DNA of 64,000 nucleotides from an uncultured Ignavibacteria bacterium (lineage in GTDB: Bacteria; Bacteroidota; Ignavibacteria; UBA10030; UBA6906), in contig CAVPBI010000022.1 in assembly GCA_963701735.1 (NCBI GenBank), positions 72,604 through 136,603 of the forward strand, read 5' to 3'. Under the pieces are notes generated by a model. That model was not told where the DNA came from. It worked only from the letters and a program-made list of their open reading frames with translations, and did no database searches. A program made the translations under genes and the position numbers. Shown one piece after another: positions 8,083 through 54,458 of this stretch. Each line of letters opens with the position of its first letter. Positions within the stretch are counted from its first letter, which is position 1.

Positions 8083-9555
8083 CTACGTCACGACCGCGAA
8101 GACGTGGAAGCTCCACGGGGGCATGTCAAGATAGAGACCGCGGGACGCGAGATCGCTTCCGTCGCGGTCGTGGCTGTCGGGACCCATGAGGTCCGTGAAC
8201 CGCACCGTTTGACCTGTCAGATCGCAGTCGGGAAGACGGACGTAGCACTGACTCTGGTTCTCCGCGTAGTTCACGGCGACCAGCCATCGGAGGCTATCGG
8301 TGGCCTGCCAGCATGAAGCGATGAAGCAGTCTGATGTCCAGTTCCCTTCCCAGGCCGGTACACATGTGAGCAGATGCCACCGGCCTTCCCGGACGATGGG
8401 CTGCGAGAGCAGCTCCAGGAGCCGGTCGTAAAATTCTTGGAGCGGTTGGTCTGAAGGCTCAAGCGGCGCGCGAACCAGGTGAGGAGAAATCCGCTTGCTC
8501 CGACCGGTGAACTGACCATCATGAAAGAACCGGAGGCCCGGTGAGAGAAAGGTGATGACCGCCGCGGCCTCGTGCTTTTGCCGGGCAAATGTCGCAGCAG
8601 CTCTTGGCTCGTCATGGTTCTCCAGAAACCTGGCTAGCCTGTTCTGGTAGTCGAGACCTGCATGCAAATGCTCACGAACGGGCCGTGCGTGCCCTTCCCG
8701 CAGTCGATCGTAGAGCCGCTTGTCGTACGCGTAATCGAAACCCTCCTGCAACATCCTCCACTCAAGGTCCCAGTAGACCTCGGCCATGAACCGAAACTCA
8801 GGCAGCCGCTCCCGAACACGCCGGATGGCCATCGGCCAGAACGGTTGCGCGCGGCGGCCCCACGTCCGTTCGAAGACTTCAGGCAGGACAAGCATGGCCA
8901 TATCACAGCGCACGCCGTCACACTGCGCAGCAATCTTCAGAAGCTCTCCAGCCATTGCTTCCTGCGTGGCCGGATTGCAGTAGTCCAGTTGCAGCGTGTC
9001 CGGCCAACCCGGAAAGTACGGATCACGCCCGTACGCCAGGACACGATCCCCGAGCTTGCTCCTGGAGAGCGTGTAGTTCGAGGGCGCGCTCGCGAGGTCT
9101 GCTTCGGTTCCGGGGACGAAGTAATCGGGGTGGCTGTCCACCCAGGGGTGGTCCGGCGCCATGTGATTGGGGACGAAGTCGAGCATGAGCTTCAAGCCTC
9201 GCCTCCGGAGCCGCTCGCGGAGGCGGGCGAGCGCCGCGTCTCCCCCTAAGTCCGGATGAACGGTATAGCCGGTTATGGCAAAGCCGGAGCCGGCGATATC
9301 CTCCTCGCGCAGATCTAGCAGCGTTTCCTGAAACTCTTTCCTCCAATCCGCGTTGGTGCGTGACACTCTTCGCCCGGCTTCCCCGGTAGACCAGACGCTC
9401 AGAAACCAGACCCAGTCAAAACCCATGCCGGCCAGGCGGTCCAGGTCGGCATCGGGGATGTCATCCAACGTGGCCTTGCGGCCCAGTGTCCCGGACAACT
9501 CCGTCAGCCAGACGCGTGTGTTGATTTGATACAGGGACGGATACAATGGTTTCAC
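8083..9555 (-). CDS. Glycoside hydrolase family 13 (alpha-amylase superfamily) enzyme
   Basis: 490-aa ORF with the GH13 region-I signature LMLDFVPNHMAPDHPWV, plus the catalytic-region pattern (…GVRCDMAM…, …FLENHDEPR). Confidence 0.85.
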   Translation of the reverse strand: MKPLYPSLYQINTRVWLTELSGTLGRKATLDDIPDADLDRLAGMGFDWVWFLSVWSTGEAGRRVSRTNADWRKEFQETLLDLREEDIAGSGFAITGYTVHPDLGGDAALARLRERLRRRGLKLMLDFVPNHMAPDHPWVDSHPDYFVPGTEADLASAPSNYTLSRSKLGDRVLAYGRDPYFPGWPDTLQLDYCNPATQEAMAGELLKIAAQCDGVRCDMAMLVLPEVFERTWGRRAQPFWPMAIRRVRERLPEFRFMAEVYWDLEWRMLQEGFDYAYDKRLYDRLREGHARPVREHLHAGLDYQNRLARFLENHDEPRAAATFARQKHEAAAVITFLSPGLRFFHDGQFTGRSKRISPHLVRAPLEPSDQPLQEFYDRLLELLSQPIVREGRWHLLTCVPAWEGNWTSDCFIASCWQATDSLRWLVAVNYAENQSQCYVRLPDCDLTGQTVRFTDLMGPDSHDRDGSDLASRGLYLDMPPWSFHVFAVVT

Positions 9556-9684
9556 AATGCTATCATCCTTCGCCTTGGCCTGTGCCCGTCAGTCTTGCGC
9601 TCCGCGGGCCCGGCAACGGTTCATGTGAAAGCGACAACTGTAATGTGTGTGTAGTGAATCCTGCGCATGGCATGGCAACAGAAA

Positions 9685-9870
9685 TCAGCAGGCCTGCTCG
9701 TCCGCCGCCTGTTGCTCCGGCTTCTGATCTTTGGCCGGGAACACGTACATGCCGAGCGCCTTGTTGAGCGAGGCGGTCATTGATGCCGGCTTCGCGGCCT
9801 GATTGTCCTGCGCGTAAGAGACGCCTGCGCAGAGAATGACCACAACGACACAAATGACCAGATGTTTCAT
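9685..9870 (-). CDS. Small secreted protein (61 aa), hypothetical
   Basis: MKHLVICVVVVILCAGVSYAQD signal peptide. Third-codon-position GC about 75%, consistent with coding. Confidence 0.4.
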   Translation of the reverse strand: MKHLVICVVVVILCAGVSYAQDNQAAKPASMTASLNKALGMYVFPAKDQKPEQQAADEQAC

Positions 9871-10273
9871 ATACGGACCCTTCCACTGGTGAATATTTGA
9901 GAGCATAACCGCTATCGGCGTAAACTAGCCATCAAGCATAGCAGCCCCGCAGGGCTAACAAGCACAAGAAGCCCATGGCCACGTGAACCAGCACGGTAGG
10001 CCACAGGCCGATGCCGGACAATCCCGCGCCTAGGCCCGCATAGAGAAGGCCTGCGAAGACGCCGAAGAGGAACGTGATGGTGGCCGCTGCCACAGCGAGC
10101 CCGATCAGGGCTCAGCAGATGTCACTTCTGGTCCTTTTCGCACCGGACATCACTGGTCCTCCACGTTCAACATGCAATACGCCCGGTCCTATCGCGGATC
10201 TATCTTCGCTCCCCGAGCGCCACACATCCCACCCGGCATTGCGGGGCCCAAATCTTTTGCGGGTTCCCTGCAG

Positions 10274-11700: not shown

Positions 11701-13489
11701 TCATTGCTCTTGTCTGCCCTCCGCCTCCTTTGGATAGACTCTGTCTGCCTCCAGCGTGCGCCGCGCCAGATCGGGATTGATGCTGGACACGGCATCATAT
11801 TGGGTCAGGTGGACCTTGCCGGTCAGCTCTTCCAGGAAGTGCGATCGCTTCAGGCGGTCCATGACCGGGCCTTTCACCTCGGACAGGTGGAGGGTGATCC
11901 CGCCGTCCTTGAGCCGGTGGTTGATCGCCTCGAGGCTTTCCAGCGCCGAGGCGTCGATCGTGTTCACCGCCGGGCACTCGAGGATGACGTGGCGGACCGC
12001 CGGGTTGGCCGCGACCGCCTCGTTGATCTAGGTCCTCGATGAAACGGGCGTTCGGGAAATAGAGACTGGCGTCCACCCGGAGCGACAGGATCTCGGGGTC
12101 GGTCACCACCGTGTGGCGGTTCACGTTGCGGAAATGCGTCGGTCCCCGGGATCTGGCCCACGACCGCCACATGCGGCTTCGACGTGTGGTAGAGGTGGAG
12201 GAAGATCGAGAGACCCACGCCCGCCAACAGCCCCGCCTCCACGCCCTCGACCAGAGTGAGGAGGATCGTGGCGGCCATCGCCGCGCCGTCGGCCCGGGAA
12301 TAATGCCAGGTGTGCTTGAGGGCGCCGAGGTCCACCAGCGACAGGACCGCGACAATGATGGTGGCGGCCAGGGTCGCGTTCGGGAGAAAGTAAGCAGCGG
12401 CGTCAGAAACATCGTGGCGAGCGCGATGCCGACCGCTGTGAAGGCCCCGGCGGCGGGGGTCTCGGCGCCGGCTTCGAAGTTCACCACCGAACGCGCGAAG
12501 CCGCCGGTGACCGGAAATCCGCCCGAGACGGCCGCGCCGACATTGGACATGCCGAGCGCGATCAGTTCCTGGTCGGGGTCCACGCGCTGGCGGCGCTTGG
12601 CGGCGAGCGTCAGGGCGACCGAGATGGACTCCACATAGCCCACGATGGAGATCAGCAGCGCGGGGACAAGGAGCTTCGTCCAGAGCGCCACGTCGAACGG
12701 CGGCAGGGTGAGCTTCGGGCAGGCCCGTGGGGACCGTGCCGACGATCTTGACGCCGTGCTCGGTAAGCCCGAAGCCCCAGACGGCGGCGGTGGTCGCGGC
12801 GATGGCCACGACCGGGCCCACCTTCGCCAGGATGTCGGCGGGCCGTTCGCCGAGCCCGAAGCGGCGCAAGAGGGGCTTGAGGCCGCGGCGCACCCAGAAG
12901 AGAAAGGCCAGCGACGCGAAGCCGATCACCGCGGTATAGGGATTGATGTGGCCGAGGTTGGGCACCATCGATTTCAGCAGGTCCACAAAGCTCTCGCCCT
13001 CCGCGTGGATGCCGAGCACGGGCGCGAGCTGGCCGGCCGCGATCTGGATGCCCGAGGCGGTGATGAAGCCCGAGATGACCGGGTGGCTGAGGAAGTTCGC
13101 GAGAAACCCCAGCCGCAGCAGCCCCATGGCGAGCAGCAGCAGTCCCGAGATGGCGGCGAGCGCGATGGCCGCCCCCAGATACTCCGGCGTTCCCTGGGAC
13201 GCGACCTGTGCCGCGGCGGCCGCGGTCATGAGGCTGGCCACGGCCACGGGGCCGACCGCGAGCGCGCGCGAGGTGCCGAAGATCGCGTAGAGCACGAGCG
13301 GCGCCATCGAGGCATACAGCCCGACCTGCGGCGGGAGCCCCGCCAGCAGCGCATAGGCCAGCGACTGCGGGATCAGCATGACCGTGACAATCCCCGCCAC
13401 GATCAGGTCGTTGGTGAACGTCTTGCGGGAGTACTCGGCCCCCCAGGTCAGGATCGGGAAATAGCGGCGGACCAGGCGGGGGATGTTCA
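11701..13489 (-). CDS. SulP-family sulfate/anion permease with C-terminal STAS domain; frame disrupted at about 12700 and 11970
   Basis: N-terminus MNIPRLVRRYFPILTWGAEYSRKTFTNDLIVAGIVTVMLIPQSLAYALLAGLPP (SulP signature). A middle segment sits in the 11795-12691 ORF. The C-terminal STAS domain is in the 11701-11967 ORF. Confidence 0.8.
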
Positions 13490-44777: not shown

Positions 44778-45595
44778 CTACCTGCCTGAGGACCAGCTTC
44801 CGCTGCGGTCCGAGACCCAGGAATCCATCTTGCCGCTCGCGCGCTTCTTCTTCTTGACCGCAAAGACGATCTTCTTCCCTTTGCCGCGGCGCTGATTCCG
44901 GCCGGGCCCCGGAGGACCTCCCCACGTGGCCGATCGCTTGCCAGGAAAACCTGATGCTGGCCGCTGTCCGGGAAAGCCCGTGGACGGTCGATGACCAGGA
45001 GGACCTCCTGCAGGACGCTGCCCGGGGTATCCAGATCCGGGCCGACGACCAGGGGGACCTCCTGCGGGCCGCTGACCGGGGTATCCAATTCCAGGCCGTC
45101 GACCGGGAGGACCTCCTGCGGGGCGCTGCCCGGGGTATCCAATTCCGGGCCGCTGACCGGGAGGACCTCCTGCGGGGCGATATCCTGGGTATCCAGTTCC
45201 GGGCCTGTGTCCCGGATGCCCTCCCCCAGGCCGCTGCCCGGGATGGCGCGGATGTTTATGCCCTGGATGCTGGTTCACGGGTCGACCCGGACCGCCGGGC
45301 GCGTTCGGCTGCTGCTGGCCCGCCTGCCGCCCGTGAGGCTGACCCGGATGTCTCGGTCCCGTGCCGCGGCCGCGCCCCGGCGACTGGGATTGCCTCTCCC
45401 CCCGAACGGAGGAGTACCGTGCCGTCCGTGGTGAGGACCGGAGGACTGCTTACCCTGCGGCCGCTCGTACATGCCGACGAAATCGTTCGTCGGCTGGAGC
45501 TGCGGAGGTTCCGGGCGTCCCTGAGGAGGCATGGCCTGGGAATGCCCCGGCTTCTTTCTGCGGGGACCGAATTTTCCAGGACCTGGAAATGCCAT
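44778..45595 (-). CDS. Pro/Gly/Arg-rich tandem-repeat protein with Lys-rich C-terminus, hypothetical; strand and frame uncertain, may be one gene with a frame disruption at 45275
   Basis: 18-aa repeats GYPGQRPAGGPPGRRPGI occur five or more times. The non-repeat C-terminal part …GKGKKIVFAVKKKKRASGK uses high-GC codons (AAG, GTC, GCG), which supports the minus strand there. A competing plus-strand ORF 44954-45685 (repeat DREDLLRGAARGIQFRAA) has higher third-position GC within the repeat. Confidence 0.35.
44990..45240. repeat. 54-bp tandem repeat (about 4.5 units)
   Basis: gggaggacctcctgcggggcgctgcccggggtatccaattccgggccgctgacc-like units with minor variation. Confidence 0.7.
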
Positions 45596-47379: not shown

Positions 47380-48540
47380 TCACGCGGGCCATGCCTCCGT
47401 AAACAGCGCCTCGCCGCCATCCCTCACGACATCCACTACAGGAACGGAGAGCGCCGCGCGCAGTGCGGTCTGCAATCCAGCCGCATCCACGGTGCTGCCC
47501 GAGTAAACGGTGCCGTCGTAGGCGGGATAGAACGGGTTTGAGGTCACGGCGGCCAGGCGCGGGACACGGCGGCAGATCAGCCGGACTCCAGCCGATCGCG
47601 CAGACGCCACCTTCTCTGCAACGCGGCGGATATCGCCGGCCAGCAAGAGCTTCAGCGGGTCGTCAAACAGCACGGTTGCGCTGCGCCGCCCCAGCGCCGG
47701 TGTCATCGCCGAAAGCAGATCGAGCGCGACAAGCCCCTTCCACCGTACCACACCGGACCCTCCATGGGCGGCCCTGGCCGCTTCTTCCGTGGAGGTCCCG
47801 GCCGTAATAACCGTCCACTCGCTCCGCCCCTCTGACTCCTCTGACTCCTTCGCCTTTCCGTCGTTGCTTTCCTTCACGGCCTCATCTTCCCGTATTCCTT
47901 TCCCTTCTCTCCTCCCCATCGCTTCCCTCGTTCCCTTCCTATCCTTCATCCCTTCCACCCCCTCCTTCCCCGTCTCCCCTCCACCCTCCCCACCCATCCG
48001 AGGAATCCCGAACAGCAACTCGATGGCCTCCATCTCTCCGACAACGGTCCTGAGGTCGGTCGACCTCGCCGCCCCGGTGCTGAACACCAGCCGATCCACC
48101 ACCGCCATCGGCGCGATGCGGTTCAGCGAGCCGTCCACCATCAGCAGCTCGAGCCTCTCATCAGCGAGCATCTGCCTGACCTGCTCGAGCTCGTGCGTCT
48201 TGTTGGGCCCGGCCACAACAAGCAGGCCCGGTGCGGTCACGCGGACGACGACGACTTCGCCCAGCGCCGTCCGGAACCCGGTGCGCCGGAGGCCGGTCCA
48301 TTGTGCGTCGGTGGTCTGAAGGCAGGATTCGGAGGTGGTGACGAGCGCGCCGGCGGGAACGCGGATGCGCGGCTTCGGCAGGAGCGTGACAGTATCCCGC
48401 TCTTCGCCGTCGTACCCGATGCCGGTCAGTCCCAGCGAAAGTCCGCGGCGCGCGGCCTGCTCGAGCAATGCCACCAGCGCCGTCGTCTTTCCGGTGTTCT
48501 TCGCGGTTCCTGCAATGCCGATCGTAATCAGCGCACGGTT
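47380..48540 (-). CDS. P-loop ATPase-domain protein (BioD/CobQ-like nucleotide-binding fold) with internal Glu/Lys/Gly-rich low-complexity insert; possible accessory/reactivase protein of the downstream mutase-like gene
   Basis: …ALITIGIAGTAKNTGKTTALVALLEQAARRGL… is a Walker-A-like GTAKNTGKTT. The insert is …GGEGGGETGKEGVEGMKDRKGTREAMGRREGKGIREDEAVKESNDGKAKESEESEGRSE…. The start codon is unclear (no ATG in frame near the P-loop, so an alternative start is likely). The N-terminal 190 aa of listed ORF 47380-49113 is out-of-frame overlap with the 598-aa upstream gene and is excluded. Confidence 0.5.
   Translation of the reverse strand, partial: NRALITIGIAGTAKNTGKTTALVALLEQAARRGLSLGLTGIGYDGEERDTVTLLPKPRIRVPAGALVTTSESCLQTTDAQWTGLRRTGFRTALGEVVVVRVTAPGLLVVAGPNKTHELEQVRQMLADERLELLMVDGSLNRIAPMAVVDRLVFSTGAARSTDLRTVVGEMEAIELLFGIPRMGGEGGGETGKEGVEGMKDRKGTREAMGRREGKGIREDEAVKESNDGKAKESEESEGRSEWTVITAGTSTEEAARAAHGGSGVVRWKGLVALDLLSAMTPALGRRSATVLFDDPLKLLLAGDIRRVAEKVASARSAGVRLICRRVPRLAAVTSNPFYPAYDGTVYSGSTVDAAGLQTALRAALSVPVVDVVRDGGEALFTEAWPA
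47820..48010. repeat. Approximately 190-bp polypyrimidine (plus strand) / polypurine (coding strand) low-complexity tract
   Basis: ctctgactcctctgactccttcgcctttccgtcgttgctttccttcac…cccttccaccccctccttccccgtctcccctccaccctcccc is almost entirely C/T. It encodes the E/K/G-rich insert of the ATPase. Confidence 0.6.
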
Positions 48541-50324
48541 CCTTTGCCGAACGTCCCCGGATAGGCGCCGTCCTCCGTGTTCCCCAGCAGTCCCGCCTGG
48601 ATGGCATCGGGAAGCGACGGGGCTTCGCTGACGGCCCGGAGCGTGGACGTGATCCCTGCTATCATCTCGTCGGTCGCCTGGTCCGCACCTGCGGTCGGCG
48701 CGAGACCGGCATCGCCGAGAAACCTGTAGGCTTCCGTCACAGCGCGGATGCTGTCGATCCGTGAAGCGATGCAGATCGGGCCGCGCGAGTACGCTTCGTC
48801 GGTCGACGCGATCGTGATCGCATCGACGTCCAGCGTCCTGGCCAGCGCCGCGTGGTAGGATGTGGCGCTGGCCGACTGCACCCGGTCTTCCGACTGCGTC
48901 ATGAACGCGATGGGCTCGCCCGGCCAGATGGGCGCATCCGCGATCGCCCGGAGGGCGCGGATCTTCGCGGTGTTGTAGTCGATGAAGTTCTGCTGCATCA
49001 GGCCGTTGATCACGATATGCGGGCCGTAGCAGAAGAGGGGCTTGAGGATCGGCCGCGCGCCGAGTCGGACGCCCAACGCTACGTTGATGAGCAGGCCGGC
49101 CAGCGTCTTCCATGCGGGGACGCCGCTCAACTCGTCGTTCCCCGGTATGTCGAACGGCATGCCGTAGCGCGCCGTGATCTTGATGGCCTCGATGCCGTCA
49201 ACGGTCAGCCGTTCGGGATCGGTGCCGGCCCCGAGAGAGCCGTACACGAGATTGATCTTCGTCATGTCGGCGCCGCCTTCCCCCGCAAGCACCACGGTCT
49301 CCGGCGTGTTCAGCCCCCGGTGCGCCCGGACGGTCAGGAGCGTCGCGGGATCCAGGTGCCGCCGCATGAGCTTGATGTTCTCCAGCGACGTGATCGTCCC
49401 GTCGTTCTGGTGGGTGAGGGCGCCTTCGAGCAGCCCCTCGTATCGCGCCTCCCAGGAGGGATTGATAATGAGATATCCGTCGATTCCCCAGCGCTCGCCG
49501 ATGCGCCCGTGGACGATGTCCATGATCGGACAGCCGCTTCCGAGGAATTTGAAGACCGCCGGCTTCAGTCCGCTGTGGCGGATCCGCGCCGGATGAACAG
49601 CCGTGCGGCCGGAGAGCATACCGTCGAGAGCCTGCTTCTCCGCCTCGGACACCGCCCGGACGCCGAGGGGATAGGAGGCATTGAGATTCGCATCCCGGAC
49701 GACTGGATCGCAGAGCGCCGCATATCGCTCGGCGACTGCCTTCCCTCCCTCCCCGTGGTGCAGCAGCTCTGCGCGCAGACGGGCGCGCTCGACTGCCGGC
49801 GACGTCTTCCCCGCGCTCCACCGCAGCAGCTTCTCAACAATCGCGTCGAGATAGCCTCCGGCCTCTGGATTCCTGAAGGCGTAGGAATATCCGGCGGTCA
49901 GGTCGCGCTTCTCGCGTTGTGCGGCCCCCGCGGTCGCGGCCGGCGGCCTGTCTTCTATGTATGCGGCGATCTCCTCCATCGTCGCGTGCTCGTCGAATCC
50001 CCGGTCGAATCCCAGCTCCGCCGCCAGCTCCGGTGTCACCGCTTTGCCGCCGATGACAATGCGGGCCGAGGTGCGGATCCCGGCCGCATCAAGCATGTCC
50101 ACAAACCGCCCGAGCAGCTCGGCCACCCCGTAGCCCAGCGTCCGGCTGACGAGGATAAAATCGTAGGGTGACGCCAGGGCCCGGGAGACAATGGCTTCCA
50201 TCGGGAGGTCGGGTGACAGCAGGTCCGCGTGGTGGCCCCGCCGCGACAGGGCATCACGGATGATCTTGATGCCGACGTCGTGGACGGGATCAAGAGGAAC
50301 GCACAGGAGCCGACGCGCGGTCAT
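48528..50324 (-). CDS. Cobalamin-dependent mutase-like protein: N-terminal B12-binding Rossmann domain fused to an approximately 460-aa C-terminal domain (aminomutase/glutamate-mutase-E-like?)
   Basis: N-terminus MTARRLLCVPLDPVHDVGIKIIRDAL contains a DxxHxxG variant of the His-on B12 motif. …ILVSRTLGYG… is the SxL motif and …ARIVIGGKAVTPELAAELGFD… the GG motif. About 460 aa of non-hydrophobic C-terminal domain follows. Confidence 0.7.
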   Translation of the reverse strand: MTARRLLCVPLDPVHDVGIKIIRDALSRRGHHADLLSPDLPMEAIVSRALASPYDFILVSRTLGYGVAELLGRFVDMLDAAGIRTSARIVIGGKAVTPELAAELGFDRGFDEHATMEEIAAYIEDRPPAATAGAAQREKRDLTAGYSYAFRNPEAGGYLDAIVEKLLRWSAGKTSPAVERARLRAELLHHGEGGKAVAERYAALCDPVVRDANLNASYPLGVRAVSEAEKQALDGMLSGRTAVHPARIRHSGLKPAVFKFLGSGCPIMDIVHGRIGERWGIDGYLIINPSWEARYEGLLEGALTHQNDGTITSLENIKLMRRHLDPATLLTVRAHRGLNTPETVVLAGEGGADMTKINLVYGSLGAGTDPERLTVDGIEAIKITARYGMPFDIPGNDELSGVPAWKTLAGLLINVALGVRLGARPILKPLFCYGPHIVINGLMQQNFIDYNTAKIRALRAIADAPIWPGEPIAFMTQSEDRVQSASATSYHAALARTLDVDAITIASTDEAYSRGPICIASRIDSIRAVTEAYRFLGDAGLAPTAGADQATDEMIAGITSTLRAVSEAPSLPDAIQAGLLGNTEDGAYPGTFGKGTVR

Positions 50325-50572
50325 TGCCGTCCCCCCTCCGGCGCGGCGGCGTGCAGCCAGCGGTACTTCTCCCCCGGCCTGTGGACGTACTTCCGGAGGC
50401 GGACTCTCATGCCATAGCCGTCGAACTCCTGGTACATGATGTCCACTTCGCCCAGGTTCAGCTCATGCCCCAGCCGCAATGCGAGGTCTTTTCCCTCCCG
50501 TTCGCTCCCGCAGACCAGATACGTCTCGATATCAAGTCCGTCGAGAACGGAATCGAGTGCCTGTCCCGTCAT
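50321..50572 (-). CDS. Small protein (83 aa) translationally coupled (ATGA overlap) to the B12-binding protein gene; possible small subunit
   Basis: MTGQALDSVLDGLDIETYLVCGSEREGKDLALRLGHELNLGEVDIMYQEFDGYGMRVRL…. Its stop overlaps the start of the 598-aa gene. Confidence 0.45.
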   Translation of the reverse strand: MTGQALDSVLDGLDIETYLVCGSEREGKDLALRLGHELNLGEVDIMYQEFDGYGMRVRLRKYVHRPGEKYRWLHAAAPEGGRQ

Positions 50573-50633
50573 CGCTGTTCTCCTCTCGTCCGCGGGGAGG
50601 CGCAGCAGGTGCGCCTCCCCCGCGGTAAGGTGC

Positions 50634-52100
50634 TTACTCGAAGATGCCCGCGTGTTCGCAGACGATTTCGATGAGCATGACCAGCGCCCGGACGATCATC
50701 CGCGCGCGCTCGTGAATCAGCTGGCCGTGCTCGTCGGTGGTCCCGAGCCCGGGCGAGATGAAGATGTTCGCATCGTAGGCGATCGTGGGGATGATCCCCA
50801 TCTGCGACATCCCGTCCTGGAAGAGGTTGGAGCCGGCATACATATCCTCGATCGTGAAGATCGGGATGCCGAGCTTGCCGTCCTTCCAGCTGTCTTCGTA
50901 GTTGATCTCGACCGTCCCGCCGTTATAGCTCTTCGCGATCCGGAAGAACGGCTTGATGCGCGGATCGATCTTCGCGAATTCCGCCTTCACGATCGCGTAC
51001 AGGTCGTCGATGGGTTTCTTCATCACCTGGGGCTTGTCGCGCAGCACGCGCAGTGCGGCAACCTGGCCGGAGAGCCCCTCTTTGCCCGGATCCTGCGACA
51101 CGTAGGCGGCCTTGCCGTACGACGTGGTGGTGCCGTACCGTGCGCCGTGGTAACCCAGCGCGCGGCGGATCGGAACCATCGCATCTTCCTTGCCGATGAT
51201 CAGCGCGCTCGTCGGCGACCCGGTCGCCTTGTCCATGCTGAAGATCATGATGTCAGCGCCGACCTTCTTGATGCTCGTGCCGATGATCGGCATGCCCCAC
51301 GCGTTGTCGATGATGTACGGTACGTTATACTCCGCGGCAAGTTTCGCGATGCCCTTGAGGAGCTTCGGGGTGCCGTCGGGCGCCTTGTCGCCGTAGCCGT
51401 AGCCGGGCGTGTCGTACCCGAGCGACGCGAATCCGCCGAGCATGGTCTCGTGGCGCTTCGCATTCACGGCAAGCACTTCCAGCGACTTCGCGACGTTGAC
51501 GTTCTTCATCAGCGGCACGGGGTGATACTTGATGCCGTGCACGGGATACTCTGCGCCGGGGAGCGGGACCAGCACGGTGTCCAGGTTGTTCTGGCGCTTG
51601 CCGTAGAAGCCGAGCTCGCCGGCGGTGCTGCCGCGGTCAGCGAGGATGTCCTTGTACTTCGGCGGGAACGGCCGGCCGTAGGCGGCATGGTGGTGGGTGT
51701 GGCGCTCGAGCGGCGCAATGTAGCGCGTCCGGTAGTTGTCGCCGCGTCCGGTGAACGGGGGCGTCACAAGGCAGTCGAACGACGTCCAGAGCCCGGCTTC
51801 GCATGTGTTGATCGGCGCGGCGTCGTACTCGTCGCCGTAGGCATCCTTGATGATCTCGCGGATCTGGTCGACATACACGGAGAGCGGGACGACCTTGCGG
51901 GATTCCGCCGCCATGGCCTTCTCGATGTCCTCGCGGAGCGGAGACGGACAGCCGGAGATGGCGCCGGTGAGCCCGATCGCGCCCTTCAATTCCGCCGGAA
52001 TATTCAGACCCTCTGCGGCCTTTTTCGCCTCGGCGTAGATCTTCGGCGTGTTCACCTGGAGACGCTTGTACATCTGGAACTTGAACTGCGGTCGTGCCAT
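50634..52100 (-). CDS. Fold-type-I PLP-dependent enzyme of the SelA/DgaE-like family
   Basis: …GADIMIFSMDKATGSPTSALIIGKED… closely parallels the SelA PLP-lysine region …FSGDKLLGGPQAGIIVGKK…. 488 aa. Confidence 0.65.
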   Translation of the reverse strand: MARPQFKFQMYKRLQVNTPKIYAEAKKAAEGLNIPAELKGAIGLTGAISGCPSPLREDIEKAMAAESRKVVPLSVYVDQIREIIKDAYGDEYDAAPINTCEAGLWTSFDCLVTPPFTGRGDNYRTRYIAPLERHTHHHAAYGRPFPPKYKDILADRGSTAGELGFYGKRQNNLDTVLVPLPGAEYPVHGIKYHPVPLMKNVNVAKSLEVLAVNAKRHETMLGGFASLGYDTPGYGYGDKAPDGTPKLLKGIAKLAAEYNVPYIIDNAWGMPIIGTSIKKVGADIMIFSMDKATGSPTSALIIGKEDAMVPIRRALGYHGARYGTTTSYGKAAYVSQDPGKEGLSGQVAALRVLRDKPQVMKKPIDDLYAIVKAEFAKIDPRIKPFFRIAKSYNGGTVEINYEDSWKDGKLGIPIFTIEDMYAGSNLFQDGMSQMGIIPTIAYDANIFISPGLGTTDEHGQLIHERARMIVRALVMLIEIVCEHAGIFE

Positions 52101-52112
52101 GACAACATCCTT

Positions 52113-52556
52113 TCAGCGTGGTTGCGGTATTCCGTGGATCAGGATCTCATCGCCGGGGGCTAGCCCCATCTCCGCGCCCGACTTCCGCGTCTGCATCCGG
52201 ACGATGGTATTCTGGTGATTTGGCATATGTGTGTCGTCGAAACCGGCAATCGTGCCGATCTGCATCCCTTTGGCCGTGACTGCATCGCCGGCGAGAATCA
52301 CCCCGCCGTCCAGCAGCTCGACAAACGCCAGGTAGGCAATGCGCTGGACGTTCCCGCCGGGTGCGGCGTCCTGCTCGTCGGTCCCGATGAGCTCGATGAT
52401 CGTCCCGGCCGGGAAGGCCCGGGAAATGGGTTTGATCAGCTCAAGCCCGCGGTTGTCGAGACCTCCGGTGAGGACAACAGCGATCCTCGTCCGGATATCG
52501 GTCTTTGCGTGGTAGAACCCCCGGTTGACGAGGTTGCGCGCGTACGGGTCGGCCAT
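52113..52556 (-). CDS. Hypothetical small protein (147 aa) within the B12/PLP cluster
   Basis: MADPYARNLVNRGFYHAKTDIRTRIAVVLTGGLDNRGLELIKPISRAFPAGTIIELIG…. No recognisable motif. Tightly packed between the Ddh-like and SelA-like genes. Confidence 0.5.
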   Translation of the reverse strand: MADPYARNLVNRGFYHAKTDIRTRIAVVLTGGLDNRGLELIKPISRAFPAGTIIELIGTDEQDAAPGGNVQRIAYLAFVELLDGGVILAGDAVTAKGMQIGTIAGFDDTHMPNHQNTIVRMQTRKSGAEMGLAPGDEILIHGIPQPR

Positions 52557-52563
52557 ACGGACC

Positions 52564-53481
52564 TCAAACGTACCTGGTCACGAACGTGTCCACGTCGCCG
52601 TACAGGAAATCGACGACGGGAAGCTCGATCATGGTGTAGCACCCGGGCTGCTGCTTCACGGCCGCGCGGGCGGCGGAGACCATCACCTGCGCGGTGAGTG
52701 CCGGGTTGTTGACTTTCAGCTGGAACTTCATGGACTGGTTATGCGTCACGCCTGAGACGCCGTTGCGCTCCATGAGCACGCCGTGCCCCATGTCCTTGAG
52801 GGCCGACACGTCGTCCACTTCGAAGACGTAGGTTCTGTCCTTCACGAAGTACGGATCCTTCTTGATCGCGGCTTCCACGTCCTCGAACACCGCGCCGGGG
52901 GCGAGCTGCACGTACACCATCCTGCGGTGGATGCCCATCCCCGCCGGGACCGTAATGGAAATCGCGTCTTTCACTCCGCGAATCGCTTTGACGGCCACCG
53001 AGTGCCCCATCGAGAGACCGGGGCCGTAGTTGGTATGGGTGATGCCCTTCGGCGCCATCGCCTGAAACCATCCGCGCACGACCGAATCCACGCCCGGGTC
53101 CCACCCTGCCGCGACGATCGAGACCGTATTGTGCGCGCGGGCGACATCCCCGAGCGACTTGCGCAGCGCGGGGATCTCATGATGGATGTCGAAGCTGTCC
53201 ACCGTGCGCACGCCGAGCGACAGAATCTTTGTGGCGGTCGCAGGGACGATGCGCGACGGACAGGTGAGCACCGCCACGTCGATTGCGGTGAGCTCCCGGA
53301 TGTCCGACACGACCGGGATCTTCTGAAGCGCCAACGGATCCCGCTCGGTGATGACGCACTGCCGGTTGACGATATCGGGCACTTCGATGATGCCGGCGAG
53401 CTCCATGTCCGGTTCGGTCAGCACCGTATCGATGGCACAGCGGCCGACATTGCCGAATCCGACGACTGCTACGTTGATCAT
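52564..53481 (-). CDS. meso-Diaminopimelate D-dehydrogenase (Ddh)-family NAD(P)-dependent amino-acid dehydrogenase
   Basis: MINVAVVGFGNVGRCAIDTV (Rossmann). …VSIVAAGWDPGVDSV… and …TNYGPGLSMGHSVA… parallel the Corynebacterium Ddh segments TGWDPGMFSI and WGPGLSQGHSDA. Confidence 0.8.
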   Translation of the reverse strand: MINVAVVGFGNVGRCAIDTVLTEPDMELAGIIEVPDIVNRQCVITERDPLALQKIPVVSDIRELTAIDVAVLTCPSRIVPATATKILSLGVRTVDSFDIHHEIPALRKSLGDVARAHNTVSIVAAGWDPGVDSVVRGWFQAMAPKGITHTNYGPGLSMGHSVAVKAIRGVKDAISITVPAGMGIHRRMVYVQLAPGAVFEDVEAAIKKDPYFVKDRTYVFEVDDVSALKDMGHGVLMERNGVSGVTHNQSMKFQLKVNNPALTAQVMVSAARAAVKQQPGCYTMIELPVVDFLYGDVDTFVTRYV

Positions 53482-54218
53482 GAGGCACTCCTCTGAGGAC
53501 GTCGTGTGGTGGTTGCGGGCTGGTGCTCGATGTACGAACAGAGGGCCCGGCTTGCAGACTTCCCGTGCTCGCGGACGAGCCGCTCGACCTCGTCCGCCCT
53601 TGTGCCACGCAGCGCGTCGAGAATCTGCGCGTGCTCGGCGACCGACTCGTCGAGCCGGGACATGACGGAGAGATAGATGTAGTTGTATCGCAGCGCCTGC
53701 GCCCGGAGGACCCGGACAAACTGGGACAGCTTCTCGTTCCCGGAGGCGTCGGTCAGCATCTGGTGGAACTCCGCGTTCAGCTGGAGGATGCGGGCCTGAT
53801 CCACAGTGCGAGCGCGCCTGAGCGACGCGATCCTGTCATTGATGTCCTTCAGCCTCCGCAGCGTGTCTGGATCCATGCGCTCGCACGCGAGCCGCGCGGC
53901 CAGCGCCTCGAGGGCGCCCTTCACTTCATAGGTCTCGGCGGCGTCCTGTCTGGAAAGCGGTCGCACGACCGCGCCCCGGCGCGGGGTCATCTCCACGAAG
54001 CCCTCGGAGTCGAGCTGCAGCAGCGCCTCGCGGAGCGGCGTCCGGCTCACGCCGAGCTGCCTGGAGAGCACAGGCTCGCGGAGCTTCTCGCCGGCCCCGA
54101 TCCTGCCGTCGATGATCGATGCCCTGATCATGGACGCAATCTTTTCCCTCAGCGGGGCCAGCTCGGCCGCAAGGGTTCCGACGTCAAAGGGAGGCGTATG
54201 GGCCGGGGTCGTGGGCAT
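53478..54218 (-). CDS. GntR-family transcriptional regulator, FadR subfamily (FCD C-terminal domain)
   Basis: wHTH …EKLREPVLSRQLGVSRTPLREALLQLDSEGFVEM…. Helical FCD-like C-terminal domain. Start MPTTPAHT chosen. Confidence 0.8.
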   Translation of the reverse strand: MPTTPAHTPPFDVGTLAAELAPLREKIASMIRASIIDGRIGAGEKLREPVLSRQLGVSRTPLREALLQLDSEGFVEMTPRRGAVVRPLSRQDAAETYEVKGALEALAARLACERMDPDTLRRLKDINDRIASLRRARTVDQARILQLNAEFHQMLTDASGNEKLSQFVRVLRAQALRYNYIYLSVMSRLDESVAEHAQILDALRGTRADEVERLVREHGKSASRALCSYIEHQPATTTRRPQRSAS

Positions 54219-54227
54219 TGGTGTTTT

Positions 54228-54250
54228 TGTATATTGTATACAGTATACAA
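54228..54250. promoter_or_regulatory. Candidate GntR operator: perfect 8-bp inverted repeat TTGTATAC-a-GTATACAA
   Basis: An AT-rich palindrome in a 64%-GC background, about 10 bp upstream of the gntR start and in the divergent intergenic region. It matches the generic GntR/FadR operator pattern (t.GT…AC.a). Confidence 0.4.
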
Positions 54251-54458
54251 GATAACGGCTGCCGCCCGGATTGTCAAGCCCGGAGAGCCCCACCCCCTTT
54301 CGAACAGGCATTCGTTGCCTCACGTAAGGTTCTACGCCGAAGGCGACCCTGACAGGCGATGGTGTTGCGCAACCGCATGAAATTCAATATGTTGCACGTT
54401 ATATAGACACCGCCCCGCGGTGCGGGGGCCAGACCGACACCACCACTCAGGAGGGAGC

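Follow-up and report, generated by a model that had tools for sequence, protein, structure and literature searches.

A conserved GntR-controlled operon from Ignavibacteria with a predicted adenosylcobalamin-dependent isomerase of aminomutase descent and a candidate role in diaminopimelate catabolism

The subject of this analysis is a cluster of seven open reading frames (ORFs) in a 64,000-nucleotide (nt) stretch of DNA from an uncultured Ignavibacteria bacterium (GenBank assembly GCA_963701735.1, contig CAVPBI010000022.1, positions 72,604 to 136,603), hereafter called the window. The ORFs lie in the same direction and tightly packed on the minus strand between positions 47380 and 54218. A preliminary description, made from the DNA letters alone, had proposed that they form a GntR-controlled cluster for a cobalamin- and pyridoxal 5'-phosphate (PLP)-dependent route of amino acid degradation. 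Our comparisons indicate that the cluster is a conserved operon, that its largest product belongs to the lysine 5,6-/ornithine 4,5-aminomutase superfamily of adenosylcobalamin (AdoCbl)-dependent enzymes while lacking the PLP site of the known members, and that its dehydrogenase most likely acts on meso-diaminopimelate (meso-DAP). Together, these data led us to a pathway model in which meso-DAP or a close analog would be degraded by way of a new radical isomerase.

Locus layout and conservation

The features of the locus, in the order of transcription, are as follows (aa, amino acids; TIM, triosephosphate isomerase).

54249-54277, minus strand: sigma-70-like promoter, TTGACA-17 nt-TATCTT (10 of 12 consensus matches)
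54230-54254, no strand: predicted operator palindrome, TTGTATAC-t-GTATACAA, then tATACAA (12-nt arms, 92% complementary)
53478-54218, minus strand: GntR/FadR-type regulator, 246 aa, with a winged helix-turn-helix and an FCD effector domain (Pfam GntR 1.5e-16, FCD 4.7e-26)
52564-53481, minus strand: predicted meso-diaminopimelate D-dehydrogenase (Ddh), 305 aa (TIGR01921; match to Protein Data Bank [PDB] entry 3wb9)
52113-52556, minus strand: DUF6917 protein, 147 aa (Pfam PF21891, 6e-42)
50634-52100, minus strand: fold-type-I PLP enzyme (PLP488), 488 aa, with PLP Asp265 and Schiff-base Lys291 predicted from the alignment to fold-type-I enzymes
50321-50572, minus strand: small protein of 83 aa (S83), whose gene adjoins the mutase gene with a 4-bp overlap
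48528-50324, minus strand: predicted AdoCbl-dependent isomerase, 598 aa, with an N-terminal B12-binding Rossmann domain, a helical linker and a KamD-like TIM barrel (Pfam, PDB profile search, Foldseek)
49950-50324, minus strand: B12-binding domain, residues 1-125 of the 598-aa protein (DPVH15DVG, S60-x-L, G92-G93)
48765-49577, minus strand: TIM barrel, residues about 250-520 of the 598-aa protein (alignment to KamD 1xrs_A and to fused KamD-KamE)
47380 to about 48531, minus strand: probable KamB-family P-loop ATPase, putative AdoCbl-enzyme reactivase (NCBIfam NF052386)

The ORF list of the window confirmed the coordinates given in the preliminary description, including the two 4-bp overlaps, one between the regulator stop and the Ddh start (53478-53481) and the other between the 83-aa and 598-aa genes (50321-50324). 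The start of the ATPase gene likewise overlaps the stop of the 598-aa gene, and the remaining intergenic gaps measure 7, 12 and 61 nt. The ORF of the regulator extends mechanically to 54323; since both the promoter and the homologs support the ATG at 54218, we took this codon as the most likely start. Both Pfam domains of the regulator score above their cut-offs, consistent with the GntR/FadR subfamily, as is a palindromic operator of the GT-N-AC type.

The promoter is located 31 nt upstream of the regulator ATG, and its -10 hexamer is overlapped by the palindrome. By eye, the core motif ATTGTATACAATATACA and close variants were recognized in front of the regulator gene in the majority of 53 related loci, with a stricter double-GTATAC pattern in only seven of them. 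This recurrence in front of the regulator gene makes it very likely that the palindrome is the operator of the cluster's own regulator, as had been suggested. The flanks of the cluster are unrelated to it, with ychF and a membrane protein gene on one side and genes for outer-membrane beta-barrel proteins on the other, and no cobalamin riboswitch or other RNA element was matched by Rfam anywhere in the window.

About 160 loci, belonging to Ignavibacteriota, Gemmatimonadota and Firmicutes, contain the same gene set. It was found in 70 GTDB species loci, which were returned by a scan of one genome per species, and in 80 metagenome loci. In every locus of the GTDB scan that is long enough to show it, the order is regulator-Ddh-DUF6917-PLP488-S83-B12 enzyme-KamB-like ATPase; locus L007 is 98% identical to the window. 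The Firmicutes and metagenome loci, which were found by way of the PLP enzyme, have a rearranged order but retain the core. Among the 70 loci with enough flanking DNA for gene-presence counts, S83 is encoded in 69, DUF6917 in 66, the KamB-like protein in 65 and the GntR/FCD regulator, as the first gene of the cluster, in 62. That the set is retained through such shuffling in three phyla or more argues strongly for functional coupling, and the genomic comparison thus identifies a conserved GntR-controlled operon, with clustering far beyond chance. A minimal version, in which the mutase and the PLP enzyme are accompanied by nothing more than the regulator and the small subunit, occurs in Thermanaerosceptrum fracticalcis and in Peptococcaceae. 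Between Ignavibacteria and Firmicutes orthologs, the mutase is 49-52% identical and the PLP enzyme, the most conserved protein of the cluster, 64-69%.

A permuted aminomutase relative and its companions

The B12-binding domain of the 598-aa protein starts at residue 1 and contains all of the motifs quoted in the preliminary description (DPVH15DVG, S60-R-T-L for SxL, and G92-G93), consistent with a Rossmann domain of the base-off/His-on type. It scores 43 bits against the Pfam B12-binding model (cut-off 32.1), and its best sequence matches in the PDB are KamE, to whose counterpart domain it is 24-30% identical, and the C-terminal domain of OraE. The barrel region of the window protein matches no Pfam family, and some orthologs carry PF09043, the KamD barrel. 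With a family profile, KamD was found in the PDB at an E value of 9e-5 and OraE more weakly, and hhalign aligned the family to fused KamD-KamE with 93% probability over 218 columns. The AlphaFold2 model (predicted local distance difference test [pLDDT] 81.7, predicted template modeling [TM] score 0.81) gave as best Foldseek matches the KamD chains 1xrs_A, 8t0v_A and 9q1a_C (E values of 1.7e-13 to 3.6e-12), followed by OraE at about 1e-10 (1.7e-10), GlmE at 4e-8 and then methylmalonyl-CoA mutases. Profile searches, hhalign and the structural model thus agree on a TIM barrel of the KamD/OraE type, and on this combined evidence we assign the 598-aa protein to the mutase-type AdoCbl enzymes of the lysine 5,6-/ornithine 4,5-aminomutase superfamily. 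This bears out the earlier view that the protein is mutase-like, with an N-terminal B12 domain in an order not seen in known aminomutases. The refuting case named in the preliminary description, a protein of the corrinoid methyltransferase type, therefore does not apply.

The domain order is permuted, in that a KamE-like Rossmann domain is fused in front of a KamD-like barrel. Compared with KamD/KamE and its reactivase KamB/KamC (PDB 1xrs, 8t0v, 9q1a), the best structural match with a TM score of about 0.6 on the target, the protein shares the barrel fold, the Rossmann motifs DxHxxG, SxL and GG, a KamB-family ATPase encoded alongside and the equivalents of Tyr263 and Asp298. In KamDE, however, the Rossmann domain resides on the separate beta subunit. 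The genomic setting differs as well, with Ddh, DUF6917 and a fold-type-I PLP enzyme in place of KamA, Kdd, Kce and Kal. The OraS/OraE system with Ord and OrtAB (PDB 3kow-3kp1) ranks second among the structural matches. Common to both are the sequence (H/R)Y(D/E)GL(I/L)EG after strand 2 and a general arrangement in which further enzymes of amino acid processing come after a mutase, but in OraE the barrel comes first and the Rossmann domain last. Glutamate mutase (GlmS/GlmE, with GlmL) is a PLP-free carbon-skeleton mutase with a small B12 subunit, and resembles the present enzyme in using AdoCbl, a TIM barrel and a chaperone or reactivase partner. Its structural match is weaker, though, there is no sequence similarity in the barrel, and its reactivase belongs to another family.

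The family counts more than 1,000 members in public data. Scores against the curated NCBIfam models fall far below threshold (Lys_5_6_beta, 44.6 versus 280 bits; ornith_mutase_E, 28.2 versus 800 bits). Among 1.84 billion representatives of 50%-identity clusters, we found one diverged full-length relative (P0241), beyond it only proteins of the KamDE/OraE types, and no intermediate families. Public records name the members "cobalamin B12-binding domain-containing protein," "hypothetical protein" or, wrongly, "methylmalonyl-CoA mutase cobalamin-binding subunit," and the names in the source annotations of the cluster members added nothing functional.

The most telling difference from the known aminomutases concerns PLP. 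In lysine 5,6-aminomutase (5,6-LAM), PLP forms an imine with Lys144beta, while Ser238alpha contacts the pyridine nitrogen, Tyr263alpha stacks on the ring and Asn299alpha contacts the phenolic oxygen; the phosphate is held by Arg184, Arg268, Ser189 and the amides of Gly187, Gln188 and Ser189 (PMC3958899, PMC9105233). Lys629 and Ser162 are the equivalents in ornithine 4,5-aminomutase. In KamE- and OraE-like sequences (P0307, P0339, P0303 and others), the PLP lysine follows the cobalt-ligating histidine by 11 residues, in a segment that forms a 4-9-residue insertion and is deleted in the 598-aa family. In the hhalign alignment, the OraE sequence IKHG, which includes the PLP lysine, accordingly falls in a four-residue gap of the family, and the position 11 residues after the histidine is an invariant leucine (Leu26) instead of the Schiff-base lysine.

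The barrel half of the site has been remodeled to a similar extent. The following correspondences were read from the alignment to Clostridium sticklandii KamD (1xrs_A), and conservation was scored over 24 diverse members that include the Firmicutes clade and P0241.

KamD R184: N288 in the 598-aa protein; N or D across the family
KamD G187: W291; W across the family
KamD Q188: E292; E or G across the family
KamD S189: A293; A across the family (one S)
KamD Y236: A334; A or G across the family
KamD C237: H335; H across the family
KamD S238: R336; R across the family
KamD R268: A366; A across the family
KamD Y263: Y361; retained stacking tyrosine

The alignment to KamD reproduces the published numbering, so that its register can be trusted, and independent alignments to OraE and to fused KamD-KamE, anchored on the shared (H/R)Y(D/E)GL(I/L)EG, gave the same register. 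Of the PLP-binding barrel residues tested, only the Tyr263 equivalent is kept; the Asp298 equivalent is retained as well. The K144beta loop of KamDE is thus deleted and S238, R184, Q188/S189 and R268 are replaced, just as K629, S162 and the RTAGQS phosphate motif of OraE have no counterpart in the family. We conclude from these alignments that the family has neither the canonical PLP site nor the "locking" lysine mechanism that goes with it. The notion of a "B12 + PLP aminomutase" does not hold up in its known form, since the PLP lysine and five other alignable PLP contacts of the KamDE/OraE barrel are replaced throughout the family, which suggests that the 598-aa enzyme does not use PLP in the known way.

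Three lysines of the barrel (K356, K406 and K454) are invariant, and K356 precedes the retained Tyr361 by five residues. We also considered Lys259, in strand 1, as a racemase-like PLP lysine and ruled it out, since the Firmicutes clade has Ile or Val at this position. Residues 259, 260, 288, 292 and 397 of the mutase (about 49134-49550 in the window) switch together, being K, F, N, E and D in clusters with Ddh and I/V, Q, D, G and E in clusters that have a flavoprotein in its stead (see below). This covariation hints at slightly different substrate forms in the two flavors of the operon.

Two companions of the mutase have matches in the same lineage. In 69 of the 70 loci, the gene for S83 immediately precedes the mutase gene, to which it is often translationally coupled, and the family has 455 stand-alone homologs. 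Its weak matches share a single register (residues 19-50), which corresponds to the small domain preceding the Rossmann domain in KamE and OraE; hhalign gave an E value of 2e-4 (probability 45%) against six KamE/OraE N-domains and 0.085 against residues 540-567 of OraE, and the Pfam model OAM_dimer, which describes the small dimerization domain of OraE, matches the 83-aa protein weakly (E values of 0.19 and 0.026). A PDB profile search with the 83-aa family retrieved neither OraS nor any aminomutase chain, nor did it turn up any other relative. Considering the shared register, S83 is probably a detached aminomutase dimerization domain encoded by a gene of its own. We infer that KamE was split, its N-domain becoming a separate gene and its Rossmann domain being fused to the KamD barrel, so that the small N-terminal domain of KamE would have been preserved as a separate protein. 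The idea that the 83-aa or the 147-aa protein might be OraS- or OrtA-like found no support in sequence or profile comparisons.

The preliminary description had called the ATPase BioD/CobQ-like and possibly a reactivase. The second part stands, while the match to the NCBIfam model reactivase_KamB (NF052386) points to the KamB family instead. The window protein scores 193 bits over its N-terminal half (cut-off 210), and orthologs score 192 bits (L001) and 219 bits (L078) over their full lengths. As judged from the profile match, it is probably a KamB-family reactivase homolog and presumably exchanges damaged cofactor; no KamC-like partner was seen. The match of the window protein is split by a 59-residue Gly/Glu/Lys-rich low-complexity insert (GGEGGGETGKEG...SEESEGRSE; window 47818-47994), which is much shorter in L003 and absent from the other orthologs. 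There is no ATG, GTG or TTG codon near the conserved N terminus of the ATPase in the window lineage, L003 and L007 included (about 11797-11803). The only candidate starts are a CTG at 48531-48529, which forms CTGA with the mutase stop, and an ATT at 48528-48526; the more distant relatives L001 and L008 have an ATG at the equivalent position. These data suggest a noncanonical start or termination-reinitiation coupling in the window lineage.

The dehydrogenase, the PLP enzyme and diaminopimelate

The dehydrogenase gives an indication of the substrate. It scores 287.8 bits against TIGR01921, well above the equivalog cut-off of 180.6, and matches the meso-DAP dehydrogenase (DAPDH) of Symbiobacterium thermophilum (3wb9) over its full length (E value 8e-111, 373 bits). 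In the S. thermophilum enzyme, meso-DAP is contacted by D92, W121, F146, S151, M152, G153, T171, R181, H227 and N253 (PMC7424261). In the alignment to 3wb9, which takes a 6-residue tag offset into account, nine of these ten residues are identical and F146 is replaced by Y; all four contacts to the distal L-center (T171, R181, H227 and N253) are kept. With the contacts to both ends of meso-DAP in place, the substrate most likely has both of these ends, and the sequence points to a genuine meso-DAP dehydrogenase that most likely acts on meso-DAP itself. The assignment to the Ddh family made earlier is therefore upheld, whereas the proposal that the enzyme acts, like Ord, on a newly placed amine is at odds with the conserved distal site. 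While the operon enzyme resembles the dehydrogenases of the Symbiobacterium thermophilum/Porphyromonas type (PDB 3wb9, 3bio), its setting differs, being a GntR-regulated operon that also encodes a B12 enzyme.

Lineages without Ddh encode a 425-aa flavoprotein in the cluster, often together with RidA and sometimes with a PyrK-like flavin adenine dinucleotide (FAD)/nicotinamide adenine dinucleotide (NAD) subunit. Ddh is found in 55 loci and the flavoprotein in eight, never together, and RidA occurs only alongside the flavoprotein. This distribution fits two alternative ways of carrying out one redox or deamination step. The restriction of RidA to the flavoprotein flavor makes it more likely that RidA serves the imine product of the flavoprotein. 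A reading of RidA as a sign that PLP488 is an alpha,beta-eliminase was rejected, since RidA is present in none of the 55 Ddh loci, and the flavoprotein finds no support as a D-amino-acid oxidase homolog, its likeness being to MnmG/TrmFO.

A further link to diaminopimelate is provided by neighboring genes. LdcA- and YkfC-type peptidoglycan-peptide enzymes release free meso-DAP from stem peptides. In three Ignavibacteriota species (L026, L029 and L056), the gene directly after the KamB-like one encodes an S66 LD-carboxypeptidase; in three more, such a gene lies within 2-5 kb upstream. In three Firmicutes loci, an LD-carboxypeptidase gene directly precedes DUF6917, and in two of these a family-5 peptide-binding protein and an NlpC/P60-SH3 endopeptidase are encoded as well. 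Genes of the PBP4B/AmpH-like kind border the cluster in Gemmatimonadota and in further loci. Overall, a single-copy LD-carboxypeptidase gene is present within 10 kb in 9 of the 70 loci, an estimated 20-fold or so over chance, with the qualification that some of these loci are phylogenetically dependent on one another. In 13 loci of one Ignavibacteriota subclade (L001, L008, L011, L019, L024, L035, L058, L060, L064, L072, L092, L094 and L099), asd, aspartokinase and MetX-like hydrolase genes are arranged divergently, about 1-6 kb upstream of the regulator; this block could be explained by synteny within the lineage or by a connection with the aspartate/DAP pathway.

The PLP enzyme had been described as SelA/DgaE-like on account of its lysine-region motif FSMDKATGSPTSALIIGKE, which is indeed present. 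D265 and K291 are invariant and align to the PLP-binding Asp and Lys of fold-type-I enzymes, consistent with membership in fold type I in general. The closer affiliation did not withstand comparison, as the matches to family hidden Markov models are local and below threshold (selA_rel, 28.6 bits versus a cut-off of 385). The model of PLP488 (pLDDT 80.7) has SepCysS as its top Foldseek match (E value 8e-13), and neither family scores nor structural neighborhood specifically place the enzyme with SelA, DgaE or SepCysS. With these enzymes it shares the fold-type-I core, the PLP signature of an Asp and a Lys with 25 residues between them and, as SepCysS has in SepCysE, a small dedicated partner; it differs from them in being about 120 residues longer and in having an invariant 30-residue loop and an invariant H134-x-H136-H137. 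Sequence and model together indicate that PLP488 represents a distinct, deep-branching fold-type-I family that is not specifically SelA-like and whose reaction type cannot be read from homology. Within residues 132-174 and 320-330 of PLP488, the His cluster and the almost invariant loop of roughly 30 residues, YGRPFPPKYKDILADRGSTAGELGFYGKRQNNLD, for which AlphaFold gives pLDDT values of only about 31-37, may form a metal site with a lid ordered by a partner or by the substrate.

The gene for DUF6917 adjoins that for PLP488 in 66 of the 70 loci. The two proteins also occur without the B12 mutase (L079, L158 and L159), which implies that the PLP module can serve other upstream enzymes. In L158 and L159, the pair is located beside genes for a 2-oxoacid:ferredoxin oxidoreductase, a RidA-like protein, DUF1805 and a heteromeric FAD/2Fe-2S dehydrogenase, and in L079 (8477-11772) beside a PBP4B-like gene. 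A search for relatives of DUF6917 returned none by sequence in the PDB and no structural or functional relative. The earlier comparison with OrtAB, that is, a C-C-cleaving PLP enzyme with a small partner, is not borne out by these associations, since the 83-aa gene is coupled to the mutase gene and it is DUF6917 that travels with the PLP enzyme.

A pathway model and its alternatives

Considering these data, we propose a model in which the cluster is an autoregulated operon for a previously undescribed catabolism of meso-DAP or a close analog, built around a new family of AdoCbl radical isomerases of aminomutase descent; we consider the chances of this model evenly balanced. The substrate would be meso-DAP released from peptidoglycan peptides. 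Ddh, or in Firmicutes the flavoprotein, often with RidA, would convert it to L-2-amino-6-oxopimelate/tetrahydrodipicolinate (THDP), and the B12 enzyme would isomerize this product or a close relative. PLP488 and DUF6917 would then act on this isomer in a transamination or elimination that leads towards central 2-oxo acids. In the presence of a carboxylate of the pathway, the GntR/FCD repressor would let go of its TTGTATAC-N-GTATACAA operator.

An attractive, more specific hypothesis regarding the isomerase, which we regard as rather unlikely, rests on chemical analogy. In this scenario, the enzyme is a PLP-independent B12 aminomutase whose substrate, THDP, supplies its own imine. The 5'-deoxyadenosyl radical would abstract a hydrogen from C3, and the resulting carbon radical would add to the ring C=N as it does to the PLP aldimine in KamDE, with captodative stabilization by the carboxylate. 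Reopening of the aziridine would yield the ring-contracted 5-(carboxymethyl)-1-pyrroline-2-carboxylate, equivalent to 3-amino-6-oxopimelate, while the former PLP pocket (His335, Arg336 and Asn/Asp288) would hold the second carboxylate. PLP488 would transaminate the beta-amine, and the beta-keto acid would be split, possibly by DUF6917, to 2-oxoglutarate and acetate. Such a mechanism would explain both the link to Ddh and the Arg/His-lined, remodeled pocket and, if true, would constitute the first dedicated diaminopimelate catabolic pathway.

Several points weigh against the meso-DAP model. It takes as given in which order the steps follow and in which direction Ddh works, and its substrate, cofactor and product are inferred. 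Ddh could be a housekeeping enzyme of lysine biosynthesis that is merely co-located; a divergent asd-aspartokinase block adjoins the cluster in one subclade. The equivalence of the MnmG/TrmFO-like flavoprotein to Ddh rests on their mutual exclusion. Peptidoglycan-hydrolase neighbors occur in a minority of loci, the nine of 70 with S66 among them, and no S66, PBP4B or NlpC/P60 gene is present in the 64,000-nt window. In some genomes (Thermanaerosceptrum, L004), the small subunit, the mutase and the PLP enzyme are all that is present. It is also possible that the mutase binds PLP in another way, for example through the conserved K356 beside Tyr361.

This last point leads to what we see as an unlikely alternative, a PLP-dependent aminomutase with a relocated site that acts on meso-DAP or lysine, using another barrel lysine such as K356 and holding the pyridine nitrogen with Arg336 in the style of alanine racemase. 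All known 1,2-shifts of an amine on an unactivated carbon use PLP (PMC3958899), and an arginine at N1, where R336 replaces the serine, is the fold-type-III solution (PMC9105233); together with the retained Tyr361 and the invariant K356, K406 and K454, this lends the idea some substance. However, no recognizable phosphate-binding residues are left, the Gln-Ser pair having become E/G and A and the two arginines N/D and A, and the most racemase-like candidate, K259, is not conserved in the Firmicutes clade. Closer to the preliminary description would be a classical B12 and PLP aminomutase for D-ornithine, D- or L-lysine, beta-lysine or 2,4-diaminobutyrate, followed by Ddh-like oxidation and by cleavage through the PLP enzyme with a small subunit. 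We consider this unlikely, even though KamDE and OraE are the nearest relatives by sequence and fold, a KamB-type reactivase homolog is encoded in the cluster, the Tyr263 and Asp298 equivalents are retained and dehydrogenases of the S. thermophilum type also accept other D-amino acids (PMC7424261). Apart from the deleted PLP lysine and the family-wide replacement of both phosphate arginines, the Gln-Ser pair and the N1 serine, mutase products of lysine or ornithine would leave the distal site of Ddh (T171, R181, H227 and N253) unfilled. Moreover, neither Pfam, NCBIfam nor PDB searches revealed homologs of OraS, Ord, OrtA/OrtB, Kdd or Kce among the 83-aa, 147-aa, Ddh and PLP proteins, and the 83-aa protein belongs with the mutase rather than with the PLP enzyme. 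We thus regard meso-DAP or its oxidation product as a likelier substrate than those originally proposed.

The operon might also run in the opposite sense, with the mutase and the PLP enzyme making 2-amino-6-oxopimelate or a related 2-oxo acid that Ddh aminates to meso-DAP or an analog, or with a specialized beta- or branched diamino acid as the product. Ddh works reversibly and serves biosynthesis in Bacteroidota, the 13 loci of one subclade have asd and aspartokinase in divergent orientation next to the cluster, and the Firmicutes flavoprotein comes with a PyrK-like NAD(P)H electron-transfer subunit that would suit a reductive step. We nevertheless judge such a biosynthetic or salvage role very unlikely. 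Regulators of the FadR/FCD type that have an operator of their own typically control catabolic operons, Ddh alone makes DAP from THDP, which would render the additional enzymes redundant, and the recurrent neighbors degrade peptidoglycan instead of being biosynthetic. Fortuitous clustering, or a 598-aa protein that is a corrinoid methyl carrier unrelated to mutases, has a negligible probability. The isolated B12 domain does match corrinoid proteins of the MtgC/MtbC type weakly (28 versus 370 bits for MtgC/MtbC/MttC), but it lacks a helical cap, the roughly 470 residues beyond it fold as a KamD-type barrel, a KamB-like reactivase gene is adjacent and the gene set extends over about 160 loci in three phyla.

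There is, in our assessment, a realistic chance that the chemistry of this operon of the aminomutase lineage is itself new. To our knowledge, only about a dozen AdoCbl-dependent isomerase or eliminase families are known, and new ones are rare. An aminomutase descendant without the PLP site would represent either a new device for amine migration or a different radical chemistry, and either would extend B12 enzymology. The genuine meso-DAP dehydrogenase and the links to peptidoglycan-peptide hydrolases, for their part, direct attention to what becomes of diaminopimelate. This compound is a major constituent of bacterial necromass, and no catabolic pathway for it was found in the literature searched. 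That literature, in which coverage of subscription journals is thin, likewise yielded nothing relevant on DUF6917, the KamB reactivase, DAP catabolism, THDP with AdoCbl mutases or PLP-independent aminomutases, and no family model, annotation or paper was found that describes a B12-linked DAP pathway or any of its presumed proteins (mutase, small subunit, DUF6917 and PLP enzyme), in keeping with the earlier proposal of an undescribed system. Since T. fracticalcis and Calderihabitans maritimus are cultured carriers of the cluster, the question is directly testable.

Several clusters contain additional genes. In L012, a gene for a CorA-family metal-ion channel (9069-9983; Pfam CorA 1e-31, with the GMN motif reading SMN) is inserted between the small-subunit and B12-enzyme genes and may have been recruited into the operon to supply cobalt or magnesium; a similar gap of about 1 kb is present in L013, L030 and L134. 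In the Firmicutes loci L004, L077, L082 and L135, a gene for a conserved 727-aa protein without a Pfam or NCBIfam family is located divergently from the regulator, and a membrane protein of the Na_Ca_ex family recurs beside or inside Firmicutes clusters (for instance, L081 11548-12531); both are candidates for transport or accessory functions. Elsewhere in the window, a tandem repeat with a 54-bp unit (44989-45242; 4.7 copies, 82% matches) lies between ychF and the membrane-protein gene, within overlapping ORFs on both strands, and would encode Pro/Gly/Arg-rich repeats.

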